From IMG/VR virus record IMGVR_UViG_3300046786_000370, positions 1 to 15,926 of that record: 15,926 bases of DNA; one strand, written 5' to 3'. Source of the DNA: a virus. Lineage: Duplodnaviria > Heunggongvirae > Uroviricota > Caudoviricetes. Both the position numbers and the translations under genes were made by a program. The notes under the pieces were generated by a model. That model had not been told where the DNA came from. It did no database searches and saw only the letters and a list, made by a program, of their open reading frames with translations. Within the stretch, counting starts at the first letter, position 1; each line of letters opens with the position of its first letter. Below are positions 1 through 15,926 of the stretch, in pieces.

Positions 1-50
1 ACAGCAAGACCCAAAGTCAAACAATTCATTCCATTAATGGAGGAGTTAGA

Positions 51-773
51 ATGACAAAACGACAACAAAAACGTGTTCAACCACAGGAACACGCCGCAGT
101 TCTGCATATTGAAAAATATCGTAAAGAGCGCCAAAAGCAAGTAGAAATTCTACCTAAGAATATTAGACAAGAAGATTATCTTGCTCTGTTAGAAGATCCA
201 AGAAAAAGCATTGTGTTTGCCATCGGACCAGCTGGTACAGGTAAAACGCTGTTGGCTTGCCTTTTAGCAGTACGTGAGTTGAAGGCCGGCAGAATTCAAA
301 AAATTGTAATTACAAGACCAGCAGTTAGTGTTGACGAACAACATGGATTTCTGCCTGGCACGCTTATTGATAAGATGGCACCATGGACACGACCTATATT
401 CGATGTCTTCGAACAATTTTGGGCTCCAAAATATATTGAAAACATGATTGAGGAAAACGTCATTGAAGTGGCACCTTTGGCCTACATGAGAGGAAGAACA
501 TTTGAAAATTCAATACTATTAGCAGACGAGATGCAAAATGCTACACCTAGTCAAATGAAGATGCTATTAACACGCATCGGCAATAATAGTAGAATTTTTG
601 TTACCGGAGACTTAGCCCAACATGACAGGGGCTTTGAGGCAAACGGACTCAAGGATTTTATTACTAGATTAGAAGCATCATCCAGTAAGATGATTGGCAC
701 TGTGGAGTTTGAACAGCGGGACGTTGAGCGTCATGCCGCTGTAGCCGAGGTATTAAAGATTTACGGAGAGTAA
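51..773 (+). CDS. phoH: PhoH-like ATPase (PhoH family)
   Basis: Walker A GPAGTGKT plus PhoH-family motifs ITRPAV, GFLPG, PLAYMRGRTF, DEMQN, GDLAQHD and C-terminal RH; GGAGGAG Shine-Dalgarno at 39-45. Confidence 0.95.
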   Translation: MTKRQQKRVQPQEHAAVLHIEKYRKERQKQVEILPKNIRQEDYLALLEDPRKSIVFAIGPAGTGKTLLACLLAVRELKAGRIQKIVITRPAVSVDEQHGFLPGTLIDKMAPWTRPIFDVFEQFWAPKYIENMIEENVIEVAPLAYMRGRTFENSILLADEMQNATPSQMKMLLTRIGNNSRIFVTGDLAQHDRGFEANGLKDFITRLEASSSKMIGTVEFEQRDVERHAAVAEVLKIYGE

Positions 774-774
774 A

Positions 775-816
775 TTATAAACTGTTTGATGCGGGTCTTG
801 CACCACAGTTTTTATA
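775..816. terminator. Imperfect hairpin between convergent phoH and clamp-loader genes; candidate bidirectional intrinsic terminator
   Basis: AAACTGT (779-785) pairs with ACAGTTT (805-811) around an inner TGC-N7-GCA stem; A/T tracts on both flanks; lies in the 38-nt gap between two converging stop codons. Confidence 0.4.
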
Positions 817-1762
817 AAATACCGCGACGCAGTCTGTCAAGTTTAACCATTGTAGCACTAAGGTTGATTTCAGGATCACCACACAAACTGTGGTTGACTA
901 AACCTTCTTTAATGATAACAATAGCCAAGTCTTGAACGTCTTCATCTGTGCCCCAGAACTCAAGATTGCGATATAGGAACTTGTAGACTTCTTCGTATTC
1001 TTCGAGTCCAATCTTTTTACAAATGTGTTCACGTGCCTGTCGCACACGCCCATTCTGAATCATAGCGATTGCTTCTAACTTCCATTCGCTGGTATCGGTA
1101 CTTTGGCCTGCGCCAGGTAAGACTAACTTGCCACTGTTGCTGTATTGTTGAGCTGTATTAATTGCTTTACGCAAATCTGGATACATTGCCTTAACAAACT
1201 TTTGTAGCGTATCTACATCTTCTTCAGTTTCAATCTTAACGCCTTCTGTTTGTAGAATCTCTGCGATTCTAGCTAAGAAGTCTGTTTCATCTAACTGATG
1301 GAAACTAAAGCCTTGACAACGACTATGTAGCGCAGGCATAATCTTGTGTGGCATATTACAAGTTAGAATAAACTTAGCCACATTACTGTACTGCTCTAAC
1401 ATGCCACGCAATACTGCCTGTGCGTTGGGACTTAGATAGTCTGCTTCGTCGAGGATAATAACACGAAAGTCACCAAAGCTCATACTACGACAAAAGTTAC
1501 TGACTTTCTCACGAAGGTTATCGACACCGGTTTCATGACTGGCGTTAATGAACATAATGTCTGCTTTTTGTACGTCTAGTTCATTACATAGAACTTTGGC
1601 CAGTGTAGTTTTACCTGTGCCTGGAGGGCCGCTTAGTAGCAAGTGCGGAATGTTTTTGTCTTTAATCCAACCCTCGACCATAAGTTTTTGGCCAGGGTCA
1701 ATCCAAACGTAATCTTTAATATTCTGAGGCCTGTAACGTTCTACCCATAAGTAATTCGACAT
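812..1762 (-). CDS. Sliding-clamp loader AAA+ subunit (RFC small subunit / T4 gp44-like)
   Basis: N-terminal LWVERYRP (canonical WVEKYRP), Walker A GPPGTGKT, INAS motif, Walker B IILDEAD, FILTCN, SRC arginine finger, DLRKAIN; 316 aa. Confidence 0.93.
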   Translation of the reverse strand: MSNYLWVERYRPQNIKDYVWIDPGQKLMVEGWIKDKNIPHLLLSGPPGTGKTTLAKVLCNELDVQKADIMFINASHETGVDNLREKVSNFCRSMSFGDFRVIILDEADYLSPNAQAVLRGMLEQYSNVAKFILTCNMPHKIMPALHSRCQGFSFHQLDETDFLARIAEILQTEGVKIETEEDVDTLQKFVKAMYPDLRKAINTAQQYSNSGKLVLPGAGQSTDTSEWKLEAIAMIQNGRVRQAREHICKKIGLEEYEEVYKFLYRNLEFWGTDEDVQDLAIVIIKEGLVNHSLCGDPEINLSATMVKLDRLRRGIL

Positions 1763-2438
1763 AATTTATCTTTCTGTGATTTAACACTAATATTACATTA
1801 TAACTGTTTTCAACACATGCTGTCAACTTTGCTATGTTCTTTTTTTCTAATTCCAAATCTTTACCGTTTTTATTCCATGTCCAACTTGATTTGATTTCGT
1901 AAATTGTATTATCTATAATAAAATCACTAATATATAATCGACTTTCGTTATCTATAGGATCAATATAGTAGATTGATGGACCCCGACTTATATTATCTTT
2001 TATCCACTGTATTCCTTTTTCACTTTCTAATTCTTCAAGAAATTCATATTCATATGTTCCTTGATATTTTATTTCTGTTTCTTTATAGTCTAATAATGGA
2101 CACTGAAGATTGTTTTGCCAAGGAGTTTCTTCCCAATGCTTTTGCATAGTTTTAGAAAGACGTTTGTAGTGTCCGTTATTTTTTCTAGTTTCGGCACCTT
2201 TTATTTGAGATGTTTTTGTTATCCCTAATCTTGTTCTAGTTTCTAATGACTTGGCAGCATTTTCTTTATGATCGGCATTTTCAATAAATTTTTTTCTTTT
2301 TTCAGGACAAGAATTATAATGTGTAGAGCAACATTTTTTGCCGGCGGAGAATTGGAACTTTGCAACTTGACCGCAGCCATAATTGCAAAGTTCGTTAGTA
2401 ATAATAGGTGTTGCTTTGGGTATACTCTTTTTTCGCAT
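1716..2438 (-). CDS. Free-standing putative homing endonuclease, PD-(D/E)XK fold, with N-terminal Cys-rich putative Zn-binding segment
   Basis: C-terminal YISDF...IYEIKSSWTW resembles the PD...(D/E)xK catalytic motif; N-terminal CNYGCG...CC...C cluster; visibly more AT-rich than neighbours; 3' end overlaps the clamp-loader start by 47 nt. Confidence 0.7.
   Translation of the reverse strand: MRKKSIPKATPIITNELCNYGCGQVAKFQFSAGKKCCSTHYNSCPEKRKKFIENADHKENAAKSLETRTRLGITKTSQIKGAETRKNNGHYKRLSKTMQKHWEETPWQNNLQCPLLDYKETEIKYQGTYEYEFLEELESEKGIQWIKDNISRGPSIYYIDPIDNESRLYISDFIIDNTIYEIKSSWTWNKNGKDLELEKKNIAKLTACVENSYNVILVLNHRKINYVELLMGRTLQASEY
1739..1760 (-). repeat. Functional clamp-loader 5' end; one copy of an imperfect direct repeat flanking the endonuclease gene
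   Basis: 1739-1754 matches 2465-2480 at 14/16 nt, including an exact TTCTACCCA 9-mer; a further GAC matches after a 3-nt gap. Confidence 0.8.
1797..1826 (-). promoter_or_regulatory. Consensus sigma70 promoter for the clamp loader, embedded in the endonuclease CDS
   Basis: Minus strand TTGACA (1826-1821), 18-nt spacer, TATAAT (1802-1797); clamp-loader ATG 35 nt downstream of the -10, with AGAAAGA SD-like sequence before it. Confidence 0.75.
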
Positions 2439-2443
2439 ATACT

Positions 2444-2450
2444 TATTTAT
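2444..2450 (-). promoter_or_regulatory. T4-like late promoter core (ATAAATA) 5 nt upstream of the endonuclease ATG
   Basis: Minus strand reads CTACGC-ATAAATA-AGTAT-ATG; no SD between the motif and ATG. Confidence 0.55.
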
Positions 2451-2464
2451 GCGTAGAGACTAAT

Positions 2465-2483
2465 TTCTACCCACAAATAAGAC
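2465..2483 (-). pseudogene. Decayed duplicate of the clamp-loader 5' end directly after the groES stop
   Basis: Minus strand (TA)AG TCT TAT TTG TGG GTA GAA encodes (K)SYLWVE versus MSNYLWVE of the real gene; start codon lost; frame closes 5 codons later. Confidence 0.7.
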
Positions 2484-2852
2484 TTAGCGAGCGCCAAAGT
2501 CTTCAGGGCGAACGCCACTGCTTAGATCAAATGATTCGCCAAACATTTCTTCTTTGGGTTCTTCATCTGTTACTAACATGATACCATTAGGATCAATCTT
2601 TTGGAATTTAAAATCGTCGCCATTGTCGTCTTTAATAGTAATAGTCATGGTCCAACGACCATGTTCAACTAGTATCCATTGACCTACATCAATGTCTTTG
2701 ACATCTTCGGCAATTTTCCAAACTTTTGCCCAGCGAGGCCTGATGCCTTCCTGTTTTCCATTATCATCACGTAAAATAATACCGCCGGCTGTAGTGCGGC
2801 TTCCTGTTTGCAATACTGCAAAAATATTTCCTGGTAAAGGATGAATATTCAA
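2484..2852 (-). CDS. groES: Co-chaperonin GroES (Cpn10)-like protein
   Basis: HPLPG start, mobile-loop TTAGGIIL, DIDVGQWILVEHG; TTG start codon right after the upstream TAA, with an AGGAG SD about 9 nt upstream; acidic C-terminal extension. Confidence 0.8.
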   Translation of the reverse strand: MNIHPLPGNIFAVLQTGSRTTAGGIILRDDNGKQEGIRPRWAKVWKIAEDVKDIDVGQWILVEHGRWTMTITIKDDNGDDFKFQKIDPNGIMLVTDEEPKEEMFGESFDLSSGVRPEDFGAR

Positions 2853-3236
2853 TTACAAATCTCCTGTATTTCCTGCTCGACTATCAATATCAACCCTTGT
2901 TTCTATTTTAGTTTCAAGCTTGTCTTGAATCTCTACGCTGCCATCAGCATAGGTAATTTCCCAACGTGGCACTCCGTCTGCGCCAACAATTTCTTTTCTA
3001 CCAATTTCCTGTTCCATTGGATTCAGTTTTACTGTAGTTGTGGTTGCTTGCCCACTCTTTTTATTGTACATTTCTGTGGTGATTTGCTGGCGTGTGGCTA
3101 TAATTTTGCCGCCTGGGCCTAGTAAATCACCACGGGCGTTTCTATTACTATTGCCAACGGCCACTGATTCGCCTTTGGCATCAGCAAATGCCTGCATATT
3201 AAATTCTCTACCACGATTCGTTCTGTGTTGGCTCAT
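2853..3236 (-). CDS. Hypothetical phage protein (AVGN..NARGD.LGPGG motif)
   Basis: 127-aa ORF coupled to both neighbours (ATGA overlap upstream, stop abutting the groES start); the motif resembles conserved large-phage hypotheticals (recalled, not searched). Confidence 0.7.
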   Translation of the reverse strand: MSQHRTNRGREFNMQAFADAKGESVAVGNSNRNARGDLLGPGGKIIATRQQITTEMYNKKSGQATTTTVKLNPMEQEIGRKEIVGADGVPRWEITYADGSVEIQDKLETKIETRVDIDSRAGNTGDL

Positions 3237-3715
3237 TTTAAAAATTCCTTAATGTCTAAGTTAAACTTATAACTATCTATTCTGTGTATGCCTATCAAAT
3301 ATAGTACATAACTGGCAATACTACTGCCCCTACCTACACCATATATGATATTGTTTGATCTTAGTATTGTAACAAAATAACAAAGAAAGCGCAACAAATC
3401 TAATAAGTTTCTTTTTTCAAATTCTTGTAATTCTTCGTCAATTCTAATCCACTGTGCTGCCGTTAAATTTGGATGTAATTTTTCTATATAGTTTATTACA
3501 TCTAAGCTTTCGTATTCAACTGGCATAGCCCAATGAATATCGCTACGATCAGACGCTAGTTTGAATGGAACATCTAATCCGTATTTTTTACAAGTAGATT
3601 CAAATTGTTGAAATGACGTTTTATTGCTGGGCAATATTTTTACTTGCCGATTAGCCAACATCAACTCTACAATTTCATTATCGTCTATATACATTTGACC
3701 CTTGTTGTTTATCAT
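3233..3715 (-). CDS. Stand-alone fragment of DNA polymerase III alpha (DnaE/family C), ending just before the catalytic DxD
   Basis: RIDEEL..FEKRNL...L..FV..LRSNNIIYGVGRGSSIASYVLYLIGIHRIDS.KFNLD..EFL matches the DnaE segment GxGRGSxAGSLVAYxLGITxIDPxxYxLxFERFL; only 160 aa. Confidence 0.8.
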   Translation of the reverse strand: MINNKGQMYIDDNEIVELMLANRQVKILPSNKTSFQQFESTCKKYGLDVPFKLASDRSDIHWAMPVEYESLDVINYIEKLHPNLTAAQWIRIDEELQEFEKRNLLDLLRFLCYFVTILRSNNIIYGVGRGSSIASYVLYLIGIHRIDSYKFNLDIKEFLK

Positions 3716-3936
3716 TATCCGATGCTTAAATAATCATCAAATCCATCGCCCCTGTCTGCTTTCTGCATTTGCCGCAGATCTTGTTGAGCAAATCTAACTT
3801 CCTGTAACATAAATTCAAAGTGACCAATGACTTGTGGATTCGCGTTTGCTCTCAGAGCCACATTCATTTTTTTAATAATTGCTCGTTCACGTTCTAACAA
3901 TTCGTTCAAACGCTGTTCCGTAGTATTATCAGCCAT
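3715..3936 (-). CDS. Hypothetical helical protein
   Basis: 73-aa ORF overlapping the sufA stop by 8 nt and the dnaE-fragment start by 1 nt (TAATG); amphipathic-helix composition. Confidence 0.65.
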   Translation of the reverse strand: MADNTTEQRLNELLERERAIIKKMNVALRANANPQVIGHFEFMLQEVRFAQQDLRQMQKADRGDGFDDYLSIG

Positions 3937-4258
3937 TTTTAAAATTTACACTTTCTCCGCAACCGCAACTGTGTGCGACATGTGGATTAACTATAGACAA
4001 TCTACTATTAATTCCGATATTCTCAATGACAACTTCGCTGTCAATGACATAAGGCAATGCTTTATTATTGACAACAACAAAATGGTCGTCATCTAAATTA
4101 ACAATATGGTCACTGGTCTTAATAGCAACTGGAGTCCAAGTATATTTGTAACCTGTACATCCTTGTTGCTCTAAACCCAATTCGACACCTGGGCGGCGAC
4201 TGCGCTCAAGCATATTGACAATATATGTTTTTGCCTCTTCAGATATTGTTAGTATCAT
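3929..4258 (-). CDS. sufA: A-type Fe-S cluster carrier (SufA/IscA, HesB family)
   Basis: LTISEEA start, QGCTGYKY and C-terminal NPHVAHSCGCGESVNF: all three conserved Cys present. Confidence 0.92.
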   Translation of the reverse strand: MILTISEEAKTYIVNMLERSRRPGVELGLEQQGCTGYKYTWTPVAIKTSDHIVNLDDDHFVVVNNKALPYVIDSEVVIENIGINSRLSIVNPHVAHSCGCGESVNFKNG

Positions 4259-4578
4259 ACTTTTGCTAATACTTTTACTAGTTCTTCTTTAGTACTGCGA
4301 GCTTTAACTTCCAAGCCATGCTGAGCAACTAGTGCCAACAAATCTTTCTTAGTCATTTTGTTTAAGTCAACACGTTTGTATTTTGCTTTGACTGTAACTG
4401 GTGCAACTTCAAAAGCTGGTGTTGGTAACACCTCGGCCGGAACAACTGCTTCTTTGACAACAACTACAGCGTCTGTGCCCACTGACATATCTACTGTTGG
4501 TGTTTCAACTTTATAAGGTGCTTCTGCAGCCTTAGTATCACTCTTGCCAGTGATCCATGCTAATATTGCTTTGATCAT
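4255..4578 (-). CDS. Hypothetical protein: Ala/Val/Pro-rich linker plus C-terminal HeH/SAP/Rho-N-like helix-extension-helix domain
   Basis: DLNKMTKKDLLALVAQHGLEVKARSTKEELVKVL fits the L..MT..EL......GL......K.ELI..L pattern; overlaps sufT by 41 nt and sufA by 4 nt. Confidence 0.6.
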   Translation of the reverse strand: MIKAILAWITGKSDTKAAEAPYKVETPTVDMSVGTDAVVVVKEAVVPAEVLPTPAFEVAPVTVKAKYKRVDLNKMTKKDLLALVAQHGLEVKARSTKEELVKVLAKV

Positions 4579-4897
4579 AATCGTACATTCCCATTTCTAA
4601 TCTTGCCTCTTCGGATACTCTTTCGGGAGTCCACGGAGGATCAAACACCACTTCTACTGAAGCAGTTCTCGTAGTATTTAACTCTGCCAACGCTTTTTCT
4701 ACTTGCACACGCACCTCTTCGGGTATTTCTTCTGCGCTTGGACAAAAAGCACTTGTTAGTGTCATAGTTATTTTAACATCTGTGTCTGTAACTGTCAAAT
4801 CATAGATAAGTCCTAAGTCATAGATGTTTACCGGAATTTCCGGATCATACACTGACTTTAAACCAGCGATAATTTTATCTTTAATTTGATCATTCAT
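4538..4897 (-). CDS. sufT: SufT / DUF59 (MIP18-family) Fe-S maturation protein
   Basis: LKSVYDPEIPVNIYDLGLIY, MTLTSAFCP (conserved Cys), VVFDPPWTPERVSEEARLEMG. Confidence 0.92.
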   Translation of the reverse strand: MNDQIKDKIIAGLKSVYDPEIPVNIYDLGLIYDLTVTDTDVKITMTLTSAFCPSAEEIPEEVRVQVEKALAELNTTRTASVEVVFDPPWTPERVSEEARLEMGMYDYDQSNISMDHWQE

Positions 4898-5268
4898 AAT
4901 GTTTTGATTTTTGCTATTAAATTAGCTACGCCATTTTGGCGGCCCATACTTAATAATGGTGCTAATCCGATATCTGTGAGTGTATTTAAGCTGAAATTCA
5001 CTTGCTGTATTTGACTTGCTTGATTATACCAATCACAGATCATCGACGCAATACCTTGTACTATTAGACTGTCGCCATAGCAGTAAATTTTATCTTCAAT
5101 CTTTTCGACCCATAAATTGCTAGTGCAACCTTTGACTAAATTGACTTCATTTTTTGTAACAGAAAACACAGGCTTGGCAATGGCACCGTATTCAATGATC
5201 CAGTCATATTTGTCCATAGCGTCTTCTAACTCAAACAGCTCGTTGAACATGTTTTGAAAGTCTAGCAT
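4894..5268 (-). CDS. sufE: SufE sulfur-acceptor / cysteine desulfurase activator
   Basis: KYDWIIEYG, NLVKGCTSNLW (persulfide Cys), GDSLIVQG, GLAPLLSMGRQNG; AGGAG SD 7 nt upstream, inside sufS. Confidence 0.88.
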   Translation of the reverse strand: MLDFQNMFNELFELEDAMDKYDWIIEYGAIAKPVFSVTKNEVNLVKGCTSNLWVEKIEDKIYCYGDSLIVQGIASMICDWYNQASQIQQVNFSLNTLTDIGLAPLLSMGRQNGVANLIAKIKTL

Positions 5269-6427
5269 GTATTTCTCCTAAGCTATCTAAAGCTAATTCT
5301 ATTTCTTGCCTTGTTGTATAGCAACCCCAACTTAATCGCAATAACGCACCATTACTTAATTGAGTAACCAACGGTTCGGCACATAACTTGCCACTTCGAA
5401 TCATAATGTTATTAGCGTCTAACATCATTGTATAATCTTCTACTGTGCCTACTACTGGTTCCAAACAAAGCAATCCAGAATCTGTTTTACTAACAGGCGT
5501 AAATTGTGCTAATGATATTTGGTCGTTGATAATTTTAGCAAGACTGATGTCATGCTCTTCTATATCATTTTGATGTTCTATTAGCCATTCAACAAGCCTA
5601 GGTATGGCGCAGATAGCACTGAGATTTTGTGTACCACTTTCGAACTTAGTAGCATTCTTAGTCCAAGTTACAGAGTCTGTGCTAACACTGGTAACAGTAC
5701 CGCCACCTGGACGAACTGGATCAAAGTTTAACCAAACTGGATCTATAAGCAAACAACCTAATCCCATTGGACCATAGACTTTGTGCCAAGAGAACGCAAC
5801 AAAGTCGAATCCACTAATATCTATTCTGCGCTTACTAATGATTTGACTAGCATCAATAACACTAACAGCCGCAACTTCTAAGGCAATCTTTTTAATGGCA
5901 TCTAAGTCATTGACTAAGCCTAGTACATTGCTGACAGCGTTAACGGCAATGACTTTACTGACTGCCATTGGCTCTTGTTTAATCTTTGCTTGTAAGTCAT
6001 TTAAGTCTAAGCGTCCGTCCTTGTCCAAATTAATAAACACAACTTTCCATTTAGCGTTACCTGACTGTGTCCAAGGTAAAATTAAACTGTGATGACTGTC
6101 GATACCAACAAATACTACGCCAGAGGACATTGCACTCATAATCATAGCCGCGGCATCGTTTAATCCCTGTGTAGTGCCACTGTTATAAACAATACGCTTT
6201 TCCGGATGATTAATGTTGAGCCATTTACCAATAAGTTCTTTGCTTAGATGATACTGCTGGTCAACCCATGTACCCATGCTGTTACCACTACGATGAGCAT
6301 TACTTTTGTGATCAAGCATAAAATCTCGCTGATCTTCTGCCACTGTATACAATGTTTGGCTTGTTGCCGCACTATCCAGATATATTATATCTTGTTTGCG
6401 TTTGAAAAATGGAAAACTATCACGCAT
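5231..6427 (-). CDS. sufS: SufS-type (group II) PLP-dependent cysteine desulfurase
   Basis: IYLDSAATSQ, SNAHR, HHSLILPW, DASQ, FSWHKVYGPMG (PLP Lys), FESGTQN, IRSGKLCAEPL (catalytic Cys), RLSWGCY; 398 aa. Confidence 0.92.
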   Translation of the reverse strand: MRDSFPFFKRKQDIIYLDSAATSQTLYTVAEDQRDFMLDHKSNAHRSGNSMGTWVDQQYHLSKELIGKWLNINHPEKRIVYNSGTTQGLNDAAAMIMSAMSSGVVFVGIDSHHSLILPWTQSGNAKWKVVFINLDKDGRLDLNDLQAKIKQEPMAVSKVIAVNAVSNVLGLVNDLDAIKKIALEVAAVSVIDASQIISKRRIDISGFDFVAFSWHKVYGPMGLGCLLIDPVWLNFDPVRPGGGTVTSVSTDSVTWTKNATKFESGTQNLSAICAIPRLVEWLIEHQNDIEEHDISLAKIINDQISLAQFTPVSKTDSGLLCLEPVVGTVEDYTMMLDANNIMIRSGKLCAEPLVTQLSNGALLRLSWGCYTTRQEIELALDSLGEIHARLSKHVQRAV

Positions 6428-6851
6428 CTAATAAACTCTGCTTAATTAATTCTTTATAATCGCTAACGCCCCTGCTAGCGAGATAATACTTATCCTCAGG
6501 TTTTAATGTTCCTAAAGCATTACCATGTGTTGCAATAATTTTGCTGTTACGGATAAACATTTCAGGTCTTGCTTTTATTTTACTCTTATCAAAAGGCCAA
6601 CTACGGATCTGTATATCTGTTTCAACCCCACTGACTTCTTTTGGCACATCTAATGTACAAACACAGTCTACTTCGCTGGTTCCTTCTGCGTAGATATAAA
6701 TCTTTACTTTGAATTTAGTGTCCGGGTGTGGTTTTAATTTAATATTAGCAATACACTTGCCGTCGGTTTGTATAAACACAAACTCGTATTCAGATCGTGT
6801 AGGCACTAATACTAAATCTAAACTTTCAGCATCCAAATAGACTTTACGCAT
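6420..6851 (-). CDS. sufD: Truncated (mini) SufD: C-terminal beta-helix turns plus SufC-binding helices
   Basis: RPEMFIRNSKIIATHGNALGTL..EDKYYLASRG matches the SufD tail P.LEI.ADDV.(C/A)SHG...G......YL.SRG; position between sufC and sufS; only 143 aa. Confidence 0.8.
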   Translation of the reverse strand: MRKVYLDAESLDLVLVPTRSEYEFVFIQTDGKCIANIKLKPHPDTKFKVKIYIYAEGTSEVDCVCTLDVPKEVSGVETDIQIRSWPFDKSKIKARPEMFIRNSKIIATHGNALGTLKPEDKYYLASRGVSDYKELIKQSLLDA

Positions 6852-7497
6852 TACTTAAATCCAATTTGTTATCACTGTATTTTGCTTGTAGTTCTTTGTC
6901 GTGTGTTACCAACAATACTGAGCCGCCATTACCACAAGTTTCTGCGATTAAGTCGATGATTTTTTGACGACTGCTTTGTTCCAGGCCGCTGTCTGGTTCA
7001 TCTAGTAGCAATAATTTTGTTTTGTTTTTAAGATATACAGCTTGTACGATTTCATTCTTCTTACGTTCGCCGCCACTGGCACCGAGATTAAATTGTCGCT
7101 TTTCCCAACCTTCTGGTAAACCAATCCAATTGAACAATGATTTACTAAGTTTAATTAAATCACTGGTTGAACCCGAGACGTTTTGAACTTTTTGTATTTC
7201 TTTAAACAATGTCATAGTATTAACACCATCTATACTGGGAGGGCTTTGATGTGCCATAAAAACTCCTACTTGACTGCGTTCATGGCATTCCATGTTATGT
7301 AACTCTGTATTGTCTAAATGAATATCGCCTGTGGTAGTAATATCAGGACGACCCATGATAGCGTGTAGTAGTGTACTTTTACCTGCGCCATTTTGTCCTG
7401 TTACTAGTAAACACTTGCCCTTGGACAACTCGATGTTTACATTGTTTAAGATTTGTTTGTCGCCAATGCTCGCCGATAAGTTTGTAATTTTTAGCAT
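6844..7497 (-). CDS. sufC: SufC ABC-type ATPase of the SUF scaffold
   Basis: Walker A GQNGAGKS followed by IMG, Q-loop FMAHQSP, RQFNLGASGGERKKNEI (SufC-type signature), LLLDEPDSGL, LLVTH switch; 217 aa. Confidence 0.92.
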   Translation of the reverse strand: MLKITNLSASIGDKQILNNVNIELSKGKCLLVTGQNGAGKSTLLHAIMGRPDITTTGDIHLDNTELHNMECHERSQVGVFMAHQSPPSIDGVNTMTLFKEIQKVQNVSGSTSDLIKLSKSLFNWIGLPEGWEKRQFNLGASGGERKKNEIVQAVYLKNKTKLLLLDEPDSGLEQSSRQKIIDLIAETCGNGGSVLLVTHDKELQAKYSDNKLDLSNA

Positions 7498-8912
7498 TAT
7501 CCTATGCTGCCTTCCATGGTTACTGATAATAATTTATTTGCTTCTGCCGCAAATTCTAAAGGCAATGTGTTTAATACACTACGGCAAAAGCCGTTGACAA
7601 TCGTCGATGCCGCTTGTTCTGCATCCAAGCCACGAGTTGCTAGATAATATAATTCTTCTTCACTTACTCTGCCTGTAGTTGCTTCGTGCTCAATTTGACT
7701 GCTGTCGTTTCTACATTCTGTATAAGGAACAGTATTGCTGATACTGTCGTTGCCAATCATCAAACTATCGCATTGTGTGTAGTTGCGACTATTCTTTGCT
7801 GTTGGTGCAACACGGACTAAGCCGCGATAAGTCATTGTACTCCGACCAATGCTAATACCTTTGCTGATAATTTTACTGCGAGTATTAGCACCAATGTGAA
7901 TCATTTTTGTACCAGTGTCGGCTTGCTGATGACCTTTGGTAACTGCCACTGAGTAAAATTCTCCAATTGATCCTTCCCCTTGGAGTACGCAACTTGGGTA
8001 CTTCCAGGTAATGGCTGATCCTGTTTCCACTTGAGTCCAACTAACTCTGCTTCGTACGCCTCGACATTGGGCACGTTTTGTGACAAAGTTGTAAACGCCT
8101 CCAACTCCGTTCTCATCCCCTGGGTACCAGTTTTGTACAGTCGAATATTTGATTTCAGCCCTATCAAGGGCAACAAGTTCGACGACTGCGGCATGTAACT
8201 GATTCTCGTCACGTTGGGGTGCTGTACATCCCTCCAAGTAAGATACATAACTATCCTTATCTGCTATAATTAAGGTGCGTTCAAATTGACCGCTACCGGC
8301 ACTATTAATTCTAAAGTAAGTGCTCAACTCTAATGGGCATCGTTTGCCTTCTGGAATATATACAAAACTACCATCACTGAATACTGCTGAGTTGATACAA
8401 GCAAACCAGTTATCACTTTTAGGTACAACTGAGCCTACATATTGTTTTACCAATTCAGGATGGTGTTGTACTGCTTCATTGAAGCTACAAAAGATAATTC
8501 CTTCTTCTGCTAGTTTTTCTTTGTATGTTGTACCAATACTAACGCTGTCAAAAACTGCGTCAACTGCTACACCTGCAAGTTTAGCACGTTCATGTAAGGG
8601 AATACCTAACTTCTCAAAGTCATCTAGGATTTCCTGTGGCACTTCGTCTATACTGTTAAATTGTTTTTTAGGCCGGCTGTGATAGTAAATGTTATCATAG
8701 TCTGGGCGTGTGTATTTTAACTCAGCCCAATTGGGCTCGGTCATTGTGCTTAGTTTGTTTAGTGCATCTAGTCTAAACTCTAACAACCATTCGGGTTCAT
8801 TGTTCTTAGCACTGATAAGTCTAACGGTGTTTTCATTCAAGCCACGGCCCGTCAATTCACTTTCGACATTGGTAGTAAACCCTGCTGTGTATTCTTGTTC
8901 TAGTTCATTCAT
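7497..8912 (-). CDS. sufB: SufB Fe-S scaffold protein
   Basis: [82 protein letters not shown]; full length 471 aa. Confidence 0.98.
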
Positions 8913-9117
8913 TAATTACATCAAATATGTTACCATATTCGTATCTTGTCCAATCATCGTGATCAACATAAGTGTTAATACACCTTCTATATATCTTCTT
9001 TAACCATATACGTTCGCCGCTAACAGTTGTAACTGGATACCAAGCAAACCAAATATGCCATGGCATTACTTCAATCTTCCTATATACATTGCCTATAGGG
9101 TCAAGCATTACTGCCAT
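8905..9117 (-). CDS. Small Trp-rich phage hypothetical protein
   Basis: 70 aa, W..WFAWYPV...SG..IWL..IYRR pattern; overlaps the sufB start by 8 nt (ATGAATGA). Confidence 0.65.
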
Positions 9118-9443
9118 CTCAACATAAACATCATTTGTTCTTCTTTACTGTTAAATTCTATGATCATACCAGTAAGTGTACATTGTATACGACTTTCAGT
9201 ACACCAGTCAAATATTTGTTCTTCATTGTCAATCCAATATCTGTAATCACAGATCAATAACATAGGCTTGCTAAACTTAGTAACTTTGGCTTCTACGAAT
9301 TTAATGCCCTGTTCTTTTAGCATCTTATGTGCTGTGTTAGCTTCTTTGTGAACTAATACCATTCTATCTCCCTGCGGTTCCTCAATGAGTATTTCCCAAC
9401 AAAGTTTAGAACTGTTATAATGTGCCGACGGACTATTTGACAT
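9108..9443 (-). CDS. Phage hypothetical protein with C-terminal F...E..MMF.LRW motif
   Basis: 111 aa; GGAG SD upstream; overlaps both neighbours by 10-11 nt. Confidence 0.65.
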   Translation of the reverse strand: MSNSPSAHYNSSKLCWEILIEEPQGDRMVLVHKEANTAHKMLKEQGIKFVEAKVTKFSKPMLLICDYRYWIDNEEQIFDWCTESRIQCTLTGMIIEFNSKEEQMMFMLRWQ

Positions 9444-9678
9444 TGCTCCACTTTAATTTATACATTAAAGCATCTTCATTATTGAACGTAGCAGTAATAT
9501 GATAAGCATATCCGTAGGATGCATACTCGATATGTTGATGGTAGACTATGTCCGTTGAATGTTCTTTGACCCATGTACCGTGTTCAGTTTGAAGCCAATC
9601 ATAGGCAACGGCGCCCAGATATATTTCTGGGTCATCTACGTCGCCTACTTTAAGTGTTTTAACAACTAATTTGATCAT
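9433..9678 (-). CDS. Phage hypothetical protein (GDVDDPEIY...W.QTE.G.WV...F..EDALMY.LKW)
   Basis: 81 aa; ATGA overlap with the upstream gene; motif resembles conserved large-phage hypotheticals (recalled, not searched). Confidence 0.7.
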   Translation of the reverse strand: MIKLVVKTLKVGDVDDPEIYLGAVAYDWLQTEHGTWVKEHSTDIVYHQHIEYASYGYAYHITATFNNEDALMYKLKWSNVK

Positions 9679-9995
9679 TTGAACAAGATAAGTGCCATTA
9701 AGCCAGCTTGAATAACAAAGCCCAACCCAATTGTAACAATGTTCAAAATGTCTTTGCTGATTGCGGCTTTAACAAAGAATAAAAACAAGCCAGCCCAAGT
9801 AAACAATACAAGATCTACAGGAGGAGTCTTTTCTGTTAATCCAGTTAGAATAGCAAGTAGAGTAGGGATAGTGCTCAAGTGAATAAGAATAACTGCTAAC
9901 CAGCCCAATGTATCAGCACTGACTGTGACTAATTGTTCTTTGAGATTCTTAGTGCTATTTGATGTAAACTCGTTTAGTTTTTCAATAATATTCAT
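9675..9995 (-). CDS. Small three-TM membrane protein (PQ-loop/SemiSWEET-like or holin-like)
   Basis: Start reassigned from 10058 to ATG 9995 (AGAAAGA SD, removes the overlap with sleB); three hydrophobic stretches LGWLAVILIHLSTIPTLLAIL, LVLFTWAGLFLFFV, ILNIVTIGLGFVIQAGLMALILF; 106 aa. Confidence 0.65.
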   Translation of the reverse strand: MNIIEKLNEFTSNSTKNLKEQLVTVSADTLGWLAVILIHLSTIPTLLAILTGLTEKTPPVDLVLFTWAGLFLFFVKAAISKDILNIVTIGLGFVIQAGLMALILFK

Positions 9996-10006
9996 TTTAA
10001 TCTTTC

Positions 10007-10537
10007 TTACTTGTAAAATACATGTCCGCCAATAGTGGCTACTTTTTCCCGTTTCCATCCTGGGTTAATATGTGTCCCATGGAAGTAAAGGGCATTTTTT
10101 AGACTAGGCAGTCTAAATTCTTCTAACAAAACTTGTCTAGCGACAATTTCACATTCTTTGTAAGCGGCTTTGTTTTTAGGTCTTGCCATTGTAGCTTGTT
10201 CACAGTACCAACTAAACTGGCAAAGAACTTTGTCATAGACAACATTCTTTTGGTAAACAACTTTGCAGATGTCGCTGGGGAATTGCCCACTTGCGGCTCT
10301 GTTTAATGTAACTTGTGCTACGGCTACTTTACCTTCAAATGGCTCATGGCCTGCTTCGTGGTAAATGTTTTTAGCCAAGCAATCTAATTGTCGGTCTCGC
10401 ATTTCTGCGGTTACAGGACTGGCCTGTACTTCTGCTGCCTTTAATTGGTCCAGCTTATAGTTGATACCATAATAAGCAATTAGTCCGACTAGACTAACAC
10501 CTACTACAGACAGGATAATTTTAACGATGCGTATCAT
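10007..10537 (-). CDS. SleB/Hydrolase_2-family cell-wall hydrolase (lytic transglycosylase) with N-terminal signal anchor
   Basis: CLAKNIYHEAGHEPFEGKVAVAQVTLNR (catalytic Glu), ICKVVYQ, CQFSW, ALYFH, IGGHVFY; hydrophobic N-terminus; AAGGAGG SD. Confidence 0.9.
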   Translation of the reverse strand: MIRIVKIILSVVGVSLVGLIAYYGINYKLDQLKAAEVQASPVTAEMRDRQLDCLAKNIYHEAGHEPFEGKVAVAQVTLNRAASGQFPSDICKVVYQKNVVYDKVLCQFSWYCEQATMARPKNKAAYKECEIVARQVLLEEFRLPSLKNALYFHGTHINPGWKREKVATIGGHVFYK

Positions 10538-10572
10538 TCAGTATTCCCTCCTTTACGCGGTTGATTTAGTAC

Positions 10573-10588
10573 GTATCGACTACGATAC
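10573..10588. repeat. Perfect 6-bp inverted repeat at the predicted transcription start
   Basis: GTATCG-ACTA-CGATAC, beginning 7 nt downstream of the -10 box. Confidence 0.6.
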
Positions 10589-10595
10589 ATTCATT

Positions 10596-10624
10596 ATAAT
10601 AACACTTAATTGCTTGTGTGTCAA
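10596..10624 (-). promoter_or_regulatory. Strong sigma70-type promoter heading the minus-strand operon
   Basis: TTGACA (10624-10619), 17-nt spacer, TATTAT (10601-10596) preceded by TGn (extended -10); an overlapping TATAAT at 10598-10593. Confidence 0.75.
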
Positions 10625-10633
10625 GCTAAACGG

Positions 10634-10942
10634 TTAAGTGGTAAGTTTTTTGGTAACAACGGAATAACTTTCACCGGATCCTAGTATACAAGCAACGTCT
10701 TTGTTGAATTGTATAATGGTCCAAGTTCTTGTTTCTGGGTTAACAAATAGTGAATAGTTTGGTGTTTTACTGTCAGCTTCTTTACCAAACCAAATTGGGA
10801 CTTCTTTGAAATCGCTGTTTTTTAAATTTGAAATCATTCTTTCAGCTTTATCGCATTCTACTTCTTTGTTCGTTAAAAAAGTTTCGGCAGTGACACTATC
10901 TACAGTAGCGTAAAATAGTAAGAAGAGTAAAAGATATTTCAT
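10634..10942 (-). CDS. Exported hypothetical protein with two Cys
   Basis: Signal-peptide-like MKYLLLFLLFYATVDSVTA; VEC...EVPIWFG...LFVNPETRTWT...ACILG; 102 aa. Confidence 0.75.
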   Translation of the reverse strand: MKYLLLFLLFYATVDSVTAETFLTNKEVECDKAERMISNLKNSDFKEVPIWFGKEADSKTPNYSLFVNPETRTWTIIQFNKDVACILGSGESYSVVTKKLTT

Positions 10943-10946
10943 ATGG

Positions 10947-10954
10947 TATTTATA
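10947..10954 (-). promoter_or_regulatory. T4-type late promoter TATAAATA, 4 nt upstream of ATG 10942
   Basis: Exact TATAAATA on the minus strand followed by CCAT-ATG, no SD; flanked by a 5-bp inverted repeat GGTAT/ATACC. Confidence 0.65.
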
Positions 10955-11018
10955 TACCTAAAACAAGAAAGTTGTATAAACTTTAGTTTTAACACCATAT
11001 AACTACGCCAAAAAGTGG

Positions 11019-11058
11019 TTTAAATATAGTATTGCCGTTTTGGCGGCTTCATCAGGAG
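11019..11058 (+). promoter_or_regulatory. Candidate late promoter variant, small hairpin and SD for the plus-strand module
   Basis: TTTAAATA (11019-11026, 1 mismatch to TATAAATA), GCCG-TTTTGG-CGGC (11034-11047), AGGAG (11054-11058). Confidence 0.4.
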
Positions 11059-11064
11059 TGAATT

Positions 11065-12630
11065 ATGAAACGATTACTTGTTACTTTTGCTTTAACTGCA
11101 ATCGCAACTTCGGTATTGGCACAAACAACAACTACCGGAACATCGGGAACATCCAGTGGCACAACCACTGGTACAACTACAGTTATTAATCAAGGAACTT
11201 ACGATTCTAAGTCATTGGTGGATACTAATAGTACGTCTAATAGCGTGAGCACAATTAACACCAATAACGTTAATAGCGGTACTATTACCAACAATAACAA
11301 TACCAACTTAACAGGTGGTACGACTAATACCAATAACAACAATAACGTTAATAGTGGCACAATGACTAACAACAATAACAATAACAACGTTATGAGTGGT
11401 AGTGTTACCTATACAAACAATAACAACAACGTCAACAGTGGTACGCAAACGTTTAACAACAATAACGTGAACACTGGTACAATGACTAACAATAATAACA
11501 ATGTGAATACTAGCACAAGTTCTAGCACCAGTGTTAATACAAATAACAACGTTAATACTGGAACTATGACTTACAATAATAACAATGCTAGTACAAGTTC
11601 AAGCACTAACGTTAATACAAATAACAATATTAACAGCGGTACAATGACTTACAATAACAATAATGTTAATGCTAGCACAAGTTCAAATACCAATGTAAAC
11701 ACAAATAATAATGTTAATACAGGTGATATGACTAACCGTAATATTAATACTAGCACTAGTACAAGCACCAATGTTAATACTAACAACAATATTAACAGTG
11801 GCACAATGACTTATAACAATAACAACGTGAACACAAGTACCAGTGTTAATACAAATAATAACAACAATACTAGCACAAGTACTAACACAAATTATCAGTA
11901 TGGTACGATGACTAACATCAACCAAAATACTAATAATAGTACCAGTGATAATACAAATAGAAATATTAACACAGGTGATATGACTAATCGTAACATTAAT
12001 ACAACTACTGCTACGACAAGTAACACTAATACTAATATTAACAGTGGTACAATGACTAACATTAATCAAAATACCAACAACGGTACAATGACTAATAACA
12101 ATAATAACGTCAATCAAAGTACCGCTACTAATACTAACACCAACGTTAACCAAAATATTAACAGTGGCGAAATGACTAATCGAAATATCAACGAAACAGT
12201 TATAACGCAGAAAGTTATTCAACCACCGCCAACAGCAGTTGCTCCGGCAATGATGAGTGGCGGTAACAATGACTTATGTTCAACTGGTAGCAGTGGATCA
12301 GTACAAACACAGATCTTTGGTGTTAGCTCAGGTGGTACTATACGTGATTTAAATTGCGAACGCTTAAAGTTATCCAAGACATTGTTTGACATGGGCATGA
12401 AGGTGGCCGCAGTTGCTACTATGTGTCAGGATCGTCGTGTATTTGATGCTATGATGGCAGCAGGAACACCTTGCCCATACGAAGGCAAAATTGGCGAACA
12501 AGCTAAAGCGGCTTGGGAAGAAAACAAAGATAAAGTTCCACAAATAGAAGAAGCGAGCAAATATGAAACTGCAAAAAACATTGGCCTTGGTGCTTTGTTG
12601 GGCATCCTTGTTCATAACGCTTTCAAGTAA
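11065..12630 (+). CDS. Exported Asn/Thr-repeat protein with a four-Cys C-terminal domain and hydrophobic tail
   Basis: Sec signal MKRLLVTFALTAIATSVLA-Q; ~320 aa N/T/S repeats; C-domain PPPTAVAP..DLC..QTQIFG..NCERLKLSK.L.DMGMKVAAV..MCQD.RVF.AM..AGTPCP; tail IGLGALLGILV; AGGAG SD. Confidence 0.85.
   Translation: MKRLLVTFALTAIATSVLAQTTTTGTSGTSSGTTTGTTTVINQGTYDSKSLVDTNSTSNSVSTINTNNVNSGTITNNNNTNLTGGTTNTNNNNNVNSGTMTNNNNNNNVMSGSVTYTNNNNNVNSGTQTFNNNNVNTGTMTNNNNNVNTSTSSSTSVNTNNNVNTGTMTYNNNNASTSSSTNVNTNNNINSGTMTYNNNNVNASTSSNTNVNTNNNVNTGDMTNRNINTSTSTSTNVNTNNNINSGTMTYNNNNVNTSTSVNTNNNNNTSTSTNTNYQYGTMTNINQNTNNSTSDNTNRNINTGDMTNRNINTTTATTSNTNTNINSGTMTNINQNTNNGTMTNNNNNVNQSTATNTNTNVNQNINSGEMTNRNINETVITQKVIQPPPTAVAPAMMSGGNNDLCSTGSSGSVQTQIFGVSSGGTIRDLNCERLKLSKTLFDMGMKVAAVATMCQDRRVFDAMMAAGTPCPYEGKIGEQAKAAWEENKDKVPQIEEASKYETAKNIGLGALLGILVHNAFK
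11260..12200 (+). repeat. Degenerate in-frame peptide repeats N-[VI]-N-[ST]-G-[TDE]-M-T-[NY]-N
   Basis: 11 GxMT cores plus GTIT, GSVT and GTQT variants, separated by NNNN/NVNT/TSTS tracts. Confidence 0.85.
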
Positions 12631-15187: not shown

Positions 15188-15188
15188 T

Positions 15189-15377
15189 ATGGAATACATT
15201 GCTTATTTTATGTTAGGGTTTGGATTTGGTATATCGTTTTACTATATGTTTTATTACGATAACTCGTCGACTAAGTTAGAACGCATGAAGCATGATTTAG
15301 ATGTACGTAAAGAATGGTTCAGAATGTTAGCTGACCAAAAGAAAAACAAATCAAAATGGCCAGAAGGCTGGAAATAA
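15189..15377 (+). CDS. Small single-TM membrane protein
   Basis: Start reassigned to ATG 15189 (AAGGAA SD, 1 nt after the upstream stop); MEYIAYFMLGFGFGISFYYMFYY hydrophobic N-terminus, basic C-terminus; 62 aa. Confidence 0.65.
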   Translation: MEYIAYFMLGFGFGISFYYMFYYDNSSTKLERMKHDLDVRKEWFRMLADQKKNKSKWPEGWK

Positions 15378-15389
15378 TAGGAGAAACAA

Positions 15390-15926
15390 ATGACAGAAGA
15401 AATTAAAGACGTTAACGCAAAAATTGACGAAGCAGAAGCGGCTATGAAAAAATATGCCAGCAAAGATACTGTAATTAGTATTGGTGGCTACGAATTCACA
15501 CCCGCTAAACTAATGGTAGCACTTACTATTGTAAGTAGCACATTAGGTGGTTTGTATGGTGCCTTTGAAGTCTATAAAGACTATATTGGCATGAAGAAAA
15601 AGATTGCTGAATACAGTGCGCCTGACCTAAGTGGGTTTGACAAGCGTTTGGCAGTTATTGAAGAGAATAGTGCTAAGACCAGCGATTACACTCGTGATAT
15701 CAAAACAGATTTAAAGAACGACCTTCGTCGTAATGAATCAGTTACTGAGCAAGTTGAGCGCAGTGTAAAACAAGCACAACGTGAAACTGAAAGTGAAATG
15801 CGTGACATGCGTAAAGCAGTACGTGAAGACTTGGAAAAAGCTCGTAACGAAGCCAACACTATTCGTAAAGAAATGGCAGAAGCTCGTAGAGAAATTGAAC
15901 GTGAAGTTGTTCAGTTAAAGAAAGAA
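15390..15926 (+). CDS. Membrane-anchored coiled-coil protein (partial; runs off the window, absent from the ORF track)
   Basis: TAGGAG SD then ATG 15390; open for 179 codons: MTEEIKD...IGGYEFTPAKLMVALTIVSSTLGGLYGAFEVYKDY...APDLSGFDKRLAV then an E/R/K-rich heptad-like region. Confidence 0.85.
   Translation, partial: MTEEIKDVNAKIDEAEAAMKKYASKDTVISIGGYEFTPAKLMVALTIVSSTLGGLYGAFEVYKDYIGMKKKIAEYSAPDLSGFDKRLAVIEENSAKTSDYTRDIKTDLKNDLRRNESVTEQVERSVKQAQRETESEMRDMRKAVREDLEKARNEANTIRKEMAEARREIEREVVQLKKE

Follow-up and report, generated by a model that had tools for sequence, protein, structure and literature searches.

A 143-residue SufD homologue in the SUF operon of a jumbo T4-like phage

We analyzed a stretch of 15,926 nucleotides (nt) from a virus of the Caudoviricetes (IMG/VR record IMGVR_UViG_3300046786_000370, positions 1–15,926; hereafter, the window), which carries a suf operon on its minus strand, and focused on a gene between sufC and sufS that encodes a protein of 143 amino acids (aa), here called mini-SufD. 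The SufD of Escherichia coli is approximately 420 aa long and pairs with SufB via its C-terminal β-helix. Our results indicate that mini-SufD is probably a functional, minimized SufD subunit of a phage-encoded SUF iron–sulfur (Fe-S) assembly system, because it combines a family match, the expected fold, an invariant His, a fixed length, a place in the operon, purifying selection, an interface that is both conserved and recovered in a structural model, and partners that look active, and because short proteins of this kind are the sole SufDs of small genomes. A preliminary description, made from the window alone, had proposed a naturally minimized SufD; the analysis bears this out, as mini-SufD is a real and selected homologue that keeps the SufB-facing strands and the essential His and that is modeled on the phage SufB. 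The gene and its parts are as follows.

6420–6851, minus strand: mini-SufD, 143 aa, which equals E. coli SufD 243–396 (open reading frame (ORF), Pfam and NCBIfam matches, AlphaFold2 fold, and ratio of nonsynonymous to synonymous substitution rates (dN/dS))
6501–6602, minus strand: residues 84–117, the predicted SufB-contacting strands and best-conserved segment (complex model and family conservation)
6525–6527, minus strand: codon (CAT) of His109, which equals E. coli SufD His360 (alignment and numbering)
6423–6500, minus strand: residues 118–143, two predicted helices (118–126, with YYLASRG, and 132–142), what putatively remains of the C-terminal helical domain that binds SufC (AlphaFold2 secondary structure and alignment)

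The gene and its reading frame

The mini-SufD ORF overlaps both of its neighbors. Its ATG lies inside the final codons of sufC (AGT AAT GCG TAA on the minus strand, read as ATG CGT AAA in the other frame), with an overlap of 8 nt at positions 6844–6851 (ATGCGTAA), and its stop codon overlaps the start of sufS by 8 nt at positions 6420–6427 (ATGCGTGA). Both junctions show the same 8-nt pattern, ATGCGTRA, and mini-SufD and SufS each begin with Met-Arg within the stop region of the gene upstream. The stop-to-stop frame of mini-SufD comprises only 144–145 codons in five related viral contigs; therefore, an in-frame N-terminal extension is impossible, as had been argued beforehand from the overlap of the start codon with the sufC stop.

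Family assignment, key residues and fold

We compared mini-SufD with profile libraries, and obtained a match to Pfam SUFBD_core (PF01458) above the gathering cut-off (30.2 bits versus 27, E = 3.9e-7), in which residues 88–131 were aligned with profile positions 178–221, and a match to the sufD profile TIGR01981 (32.3 bits, E = 5.8e-8). The Pfam scan gave no match to PF19295 (SufBD_N) in mini-SufD, the SmsB profile NF052511 gave none either, and NF008194, the NCBIfam model of SufD, was not among the matches listed. A phmmer search against the sequences of the Protein Data Bank returned nothing at E ≤ 1, and the kinship to solved SufD structures is therefore visible by profile and fold only.

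In an alignment constructed with MAFFT, residues A107-T108-H109 of mini-SufD were placed on C358-S359-H360 of E. coli SufD, and YYLASRG (residues 122–128) was placed on the E. coli segment FYLRSRG. Both equivalences had been claimed in the preliminary description, including the retention of the His and the change from Cys to Ala in the ATHG motif, and the alignment agrees with them. When short and long SufDs were aligned together (60 sequences), H109 and P96 were the only invariant columns.

The three-dimensional structure was predicted with AlphaFold2 using this 60-sequence alignment; a single-sequence model, which was unusable (predicted local distance difference test (pLDDT) 47.8), was replaced by it. 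The alignment-based model had a pLDDT of 92.8 and contained nine strands and two helices, and even residues 1–10 reached a pLDDT of 90. All of the top structural matches were chains of SufB, SufD or SmsB, and the match to SufD and SufB chains extended across all 143 residues, with Z scores of 10.7–12.3. For example, VIA-align superposed the complete protein on residues 243–396 of E. coli SufD (1vh4_A; Z 10.9, root-mean-square deviation (rmsd) 2.2 Å) and on residues 316–469 of SufB (5awf_E; Z 12.3, rmsd 2.1 Å). An ESM Atlas model for the same cluster agreed with the AlphaFold2 model (TM 0.94). A right-handed parallel β-helix core followed by C-terminal helices is present in the model, though reduced to two helices and the final part of the core; as modeled, mini-SufD would thus consist of the last three turns of the SufB/SufD β-helix and, from the C-terminal domain, the first two helices. 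Compared with E. coli SufD, it lacks residues 1–242, that is, the N-terminal helical domain and approximately 60% of the β-helix, as well as the last approximately 27 of 423 residues. With a SUFBD_core score above the cut-off and a fold match over its whole length, mini-SufD is assigned to the family by profile and structure alike.

Conservation and selection

A word-indexed search identified 269 homologues with lengths of 78–251 aa. The 145 family members that were aligned had lengths of 137–160 aa, with 134 of them at 142–143 aa, and no frameshifts or stops were found among these 145 homologues; the variable and degenerate truncations expected of a decaying gene were not seen. An exhaustive search of 1.8 billion representatives extended the family to members of 154–155 aa at identities down to 62%, one of which lies in the same sufC–miniD–sufS context, and the motifs were still kept in members at 59–62% identity. 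Conservation in the 145-member family peaked at residues 84–117 (mean identity to the consensus, 0.94 versus 0.81–0.90 elsewhere), within which the blocks IRSWPF, ARPEM and THGN are invariant.

We further calculated dN/dS among the phage relatives by the Nei–Gojobori method. The values for mini-SufD were 0.025–0.105, at synonymous distances (dS) of up to about 2, compared with 0.04–0.10 for SufB, 0.06–0.15 for SufC and 0.11–0.31 for SufT. The mini-SufD gene is live and under purifying selection, and the dN/dS comparison that the preliminary description had suggested comes out in its favor.

Predicted interface with SufB

To model the complex, residues 190–471 of the phage SufB were combined with mini-SufD, and three controls were run alongside. 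The interface score ipSAE was 0.64 for SufB and mini-SufD (0.64, 0.68 and 0.64 in individual runs), whereas the best control reached 0.00; the pLDDT of the partners was at least 85, and the agreement of contacts between runs was at least 94%. The mark applied to ipSAE was met by 58 of 80 solved complexes and by 2 of 110 mismatched pairs, counts that are only roughly valid here because our own alignments were used. In the modeled interface, residues 383–415 of SufB face residues 84–117 of mini-SufD (contact residues 71, 84, 86–115 and 117), and H109 lies against C381 and E408-H409-E410 of SufB. The model supports the placement of mini-SufD on the phage SufB at the canonical antiparallel-strand interface.

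Previous mutational work is compatible with such a reduced subunit. In SufD, H360 was the only residue that alanine scanning identified as essential, and C358 was individually dispensable provided that E432 and H433 of SufB were present (PMC5571166); the equivalents of these two SufB residues, E408 and H409, are present in the phage SufB. In addition, SufE has been reported to dock on SufB and on the SufB-adjacent SufC, and not on SufD (PMC13485665). These published results fit a reduced SufD.

Proposed mechanism

In the mechanism that we propose, mini-SufD would keep the last turns of the β-helix, and its edge strands would lie antiparallel to the corresponding strands of SufB and pair with them, such that H109 (H360 in E. 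coli) would face E410 and C381 of SufB (E. coli E434 and C405). The two C-terminal helices should hold the second SufC. SufS and SufE would hand persulfide sulfur to C229 of SufB, from which it would move through the SufB β-helix to C381, and the nascent cluster would presumably be held by C381 and E410 of SufB together with H109 of mini-SufD. Because Cys358 is Ala in mini-SufD, a flexible fourth ligand would come from E408 or H409 of SufB. ATP-driven dimerization of the two SufCs, one on SufB and one on mini-SufD, may then open the interface. The N-terminal helical domain of SufD and the first approximately 60% of its β-helix would be dispensable in the phage system. For mini-SufD itself, we infer SufC binding, stoichiometry, cluster ligation and activity.

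Short SufDs in other genomes

The exhaustive search also returned many further short SufD-like proteins of 125–265 aa, which cover the second half of SUFBD_core. Metagenome-assembled genomes (MAGs) of Saccharibacteria contain sufC (220–227 aa), sufB (442–443 aa) and a SufD of 145–153 aa, in that order. A SufD of 159 aa was found in Collierbacteria and one of 165 aa in a Mycoplasmataceae MAG, and other Patescibacteria have SufDs of 188–230 aa. We scanned genomes for short SufDs with a three-sequence alignment; in five genomes of 0.6–1.1 Mb (three of Saccharibacteria, one of Collierbacteria and the Mycoplasmataceae MAG), the SUFBD_core matches consisted of one full SufB and one short SufD only. 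The short protein is the sole SufD in these five small genomes. A language-model search suggested further clusters of short proteins, of 199 aa in Nanobdellota archaea and of 149 aa in bacteria, which we regard as leads only.

A second phage-like contig (L012:1–5573) carries a full SufC of 247 aa, a SufD of 193 aa, SufS, SufE, SufT, a ferredoxin, SufA, MazG and a piece of DNA_pol3_alpha. The SufB of this contig occupies two ORFs, one of at least 103 aa with SufBD_N and then one of 239 aa with the core, possibly as a result of an assembly frameshift. The contig shows another reduced arrangement of SUF genes, distinct from that of the window. The search for equally short homologues that had been suggested at the outset was thus successful. 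At the same time, mini-SufD does not by itself define the smallest functional SufD, as had been claimed, given the sole SufDs of 145–153 aa in Saccharibacteria and those of 159–230 aa in other Patescibacteria and in the second phage-like lineage. A literature search on SufDs of short or truncated form, SUF operons of phages, and the SufD of the candidate phyla radiation (CPR) and of DPANN found no description of a mini-SufD, with a coverage that is incomplete and leaves its absence from the literature unproven.

Three observations were made on individual loci in this set. An apparent SufB–miniD fusion of 588 aa at a Saccharibacteria locus was rejected; its frame had been extended from the start of a match located within sufB, and the ORFs are separate (443 aa and 146 aa). 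The gene that adjoins a short SufD of 179 aa (P0127) in a very AT-rich organism contains three in-frame stops under translation table 11 (L010:577–1086), which points to a different genetic code or to a broken gene. Similarly, two in-frame TGA codons occur in the SufB of the Mycoplasmataceae MAG.

The SufC side

The statement in the preliminary description that mini-SufD retains the SufC-docking tail was correct in part: the two helices and YYLASRG are kept, but the last helix is lost and the partner SufC is shorter by approximately 30 C-terminal residues. The phage SufC (217 aa) ends 18 residues past the H-loop His, and the SufCs of Saccharibacteria (220–227 aa) stop where it stops. Among the loci examined for SufC length (including window 6844–7497, L017:1265–1927, L014:570–1232 and L012:1051–1794), SufCs of 217–227 aa were found only beside SufDs of 143–153 aa, whereas SufDs of 159–230 aa sit beside SufCs of at least 231–247 aa. 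This association of lengths amounts to at most two independent events and is best taken as a hint from sequence comparison. The lost tail of SufC and the lost parts of SufD may belong together, as a co-truncation of contacting parts.

It is possible, at somewhat less than even chances in our judgment, that mini-SufD and the trimmed SufC constitute a working asymmetric SufB-C2-miniD scaffold with independent origins in Saccharibacteria and in a giant phage of fresh water. If this is true, two-thirds of SufD, comprising the N-terminal domain plus the larger part of the β-helix, and the tail of SufC would form a dispensable, co-evolving module, and the real job of SufD would come down to one His, one β-edge and one dock for SufC.

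Alternative explanations

Several points weigh against a functional minimized SufD. The score of mini-SufD against TIGR01981 falls far short of the equivalog cut-off (32.3 bits versus 222); to judge from its sequence, its small size and its divergence keep equivalog models from naming it SufD. Cys358 of E. coli SufD corresponds to Ala107. The third and last helix of the canonical SufC-binding domain is absent, as mini-SufD ends at the equivalent of SufD residue 396 of 423, and the phage SufC is itself trimmed at the C-terminus, approximately 30 residues short of E. coli SufC. The score of the modeled complex may stem from a memory of the solved SufBC2D structure 5AWF. The exposed N-terminal edge of the cut β-helix could need a further partner, and, with phage records that CheckV rates as at most 66% complete, an unlinked N-terminal piece is possible.

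This last point leads to the idea that SufD is split and that mini-SufD constitutes its C-terminal half, which would restore a β-helix close to full length by assembling with an N-terminal half encoded elsewhere in a genome of approximately 360 kb. The records are indeed fragments (22% and at most 66% complete), the truncated β-helix leaves an exposed edge, N-terminal regions of SufD are poorly conserved and could escape a hidden Markov model, and SufB itself seems to be divided between two ORFs in the second phage-like contig. However, the 79.9-kb record and a 235-kb relative each have only two SUFBD_core matches, SufB and mini-SufD, and the five whole small bacterial genomes likewise have only two apiece; moreover, the model folds confidently alone from residue 1 (pLDDT 90 for residues 1–10), the length is fixed at 142–143 aa, and translational coupling exists on both sides. 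A split SufD is accordingly improbable. We consider it unlikely, to a slightly lesser degree, that mini-SufD serves as a modulator, which would cap host SufB or bind host SufC and in this way divert or slow the SUF machinery of the host, or would form a mini-D2-C2 complex. E. coli SufD forms SufC2D2; in the model of mini-SufD, exactly the two surfaces for the binding of SufB and SufC appear to be retained, and the 60% identity between the phage and E. coli SufBs means that phage and host interfaces are maybe interchangeable. Against such a role, the phage possesses a complete partner set of its own in one overlapping operon of conserved order, and the cluster-ligand His, which would be superfluous in a protein that acted purely as a cap or inhibitor, is invariant. 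The cellular genomes with SufB and a short SufD only likewise argue for the normal job of SufD.

The least credible explanation, to which we give very little weight, is that mini-SufD is a decaying remnant of sufD that a deletion left behind and that is tolerated as the phage SufB can work as SufB2C2 or with the SufD of the host. Two reports describe SufB2C2 complexes in E. coli preparations and SMS systems that work without SufD (PMC12584684, PMC12442378), and the Pfam match spans residues 88–131 only. Yet the dN/dS values remain at 0.025–0.105 at dS up to about 2, the 145 homologues are of invariant length and free of frameshifts and stops, the motifs are kept at 59–62% identity, and the fold is predicted with high confidence. 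The remnant explanation is contradicted by the selection data.

Origin and comparison with known systems

In a quick maximum-likelihood tree, the phage proteins formed a clade (support 100) within a group of 33 mostly short SufDs (SH-like approximate likelihood ratio test 98), apart from the full-length SufDs of Pseudomonadota. This tree contains long branches and skewed composition, and four of its rows (L025_464, L055_465, L061_449 and L044_471) are SufB paralogues near the outgroup, which do not affect the placement of the phage clade. In the approximately unbiased test, a clade of phage and Pseudomonadota SufDs was not rejected (P = 0.234), and we therefore make no claim on the origin of mini-SufD. 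The phage gene order, sufBCDSE, is the proteobacterial one, whereas the order in Patescibacteria is sufCBD. A convergent truncation of the phage and Patescibacteria SufDs, which this test did not separate from common descent, is plausible but unproven from such sequence data. The tree suggests that mini-SufD is a derived, reduced form among SufDs. The earlier view that it stands between canonical SUF and SmsBC describes its architecture only and is not supported in an evolutionary sense.

Mini-SufD shares with E. coli SufD (1VH4, 2ZU0 and 5AWF) the last β-helix turns and the first two C-terminal helices (Z 10.7–10.9, rmsd 2.2–2.3 Å), the essential His, the FYLxSRG helix and a gene position between sufC and sufS, and its model shares with SufBC2D an antiparallel-strand interface to SufB adjoining the equivalents of C405 and E434. 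It differs from E. coli SufD in length (143 versus 423 aa), in the replacement of Cys358 by Ala and in sequence, with an overall identity of approximately 13%. The short SufDs of Patescibacteria resemble it in the half of SUFBD_core covered (profile positions approximately 107–232), in the invariant Pro and His and in length, and in Saccharibacteria their partner is likewise a SufC with a trimmed C-terminus (220–227 aa); in contrast, they are cellular, occur in the order sufC–sufB–sufD, and are only 22–28% identical to the phage protein.

SmsB of SmsCB, a minimal system akin to SUF (9H78 of M. jannaschii, 4DN7), has the same fold of a β-helix with C-terminal helices (Z 9.8–9.9), and mini-SufD may by analogy be likened to it as a scaffold partner of a SufC-type ATPase. 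However, SmsB, with about 290–400 aa, is a full scaffold that resembles SufB, forms a homodimer and has its own cluster ligands, and the phage operon differs from the two-gene smsCB in having a canonical SufB, a heterodimeric design, and SufS, SufE and SufT. Aquatic T4-like phages have been reported to carry single Fe-S auxiliary genes, namely sufA/ATC, iscU, sufE and paaD/DUF59 (PMC5332604; PMC8940887). In contrast to these single carriers or scaffolds, the whole sufBC(D)SE–sufT–sufA pathway is present here with a reduced SufD.

The SUF field has yet to settle what SufD contributes beyond supplying His360 and holding a second SufC. A selected SufD of 143 aa, belonging to a phage family of which more than 140 members have been sequenced, offers a ready-made minimal construct to determine which parts of SufD serve heterodimer formation, coupling of the ATPase, acquisition of iron and assembly of the cluster; several ultra-small bacteria have similar short forms as their sole SufD. 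Furthermore, in some jumbo phages the SUF pathway is present as a whole, beyond single Fe-S carrier genes; this bears on the supply of Fe-S enzymes during infection.

The operon and its phage context

The genes of the minus strand form a tight run, sufB–sufC–miniD–sufS–sufE–sufT, followed by a marginal sufA-like ORF. Besides mini-SufD, the features are as follows.

7497–8912, minus strand: full-length SufB, 471 aa (NF008773, 820 bits; 60% identical to E. coli SufB)
6844–7497, minus strand: SufC-type ABC ATPase, 217 aa (TIGR01978, 160 bits, under the cut-off of 212.8)
5231–6427, minus strand: SufS cysteine desulfurase, 398 aa (profile matches; K216 and C349 correspond to K226 and C364 of E. coli SufS)
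4894–5268, minus strand: SufE sulfur carrier, 124 aa (profile matches; C48 equals E. coli C51)
4538–4897, minus strand: SufT/DUF59 Fe-S assembly protein, 119 aa (profile matches)
3929–4258, minus strand: probable A-type carrier (SufA-like), 109 aa (PF01521, 26.1 bits versus a cut-off of 26.3, marginal)

The order from sufB to sufT was identical in all five other viral loci that were fetched, and mini-SufD aligns without gaps among them. The ORF at 3929–4258 is a probable A-type carrier by sequence, with a Pfam score just under the cut-off. All eight functional sites mapped in SufB are kept (C229, R201, N203, Q260, W262, K279, C381 and E408-H409-E410), of which C381 and E408-H409-E410 are equivalent to E. 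coli C405 and E432-H433-E434. Likewise, K40, Q84, E167 and H199 of SufC map to E. coli K40, Q85, E171 and H203, and the catalytic residues mapped in the phage SufC, SufS and SufE are all kept.

The identity to the E. coli proteins is uneven across the operon (window 4894–8912), at 60% for SufB, 33% for SufC, 28% for SufS and 25% for SufE, and the local alignment of mini-SufD with E. coli SufD spans only approximately 47 residues. The same unevenness was observed within the phage group, where a contig of 6909 bp has a SufB that is 88% identical but a mini-SufD that is 59% identical (P0242, P0187).

The window belongs to a record of 79,926 bp that CheckV estimated as 22% complete, which implies a genome of approximately 360 kb, and homologues of the mini-SufD gene sit on contigs of 292–360 kb. 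The neighbors are T4-like (PhoH, a clamp loader, a gp31/GroES-like protein and a piece of DNA polymerase), and a SleB-type cell-wall hydrolase is also encoded in the surroundings of the suf genes. The carrier of the suf operon is a jumbo T4-like phage. Searches of an isolate-phage collection by megablast and tblastn gave no matches, and a cultured relative was not found there.

The DNA originates from freshwater metagenomes. In one freshwater metatranscriptome, exact or near-exact short contigs were found at 4200–4444, in sufS (5821–5972) and in sufB (8587–8737), with none on the mini-SufD gene; these may reflect DNA carry-over. Contigs without differences over positions 4200–7649, which include the whole mini-SufD gene, were present in a second freshwater sample, taken in another study.

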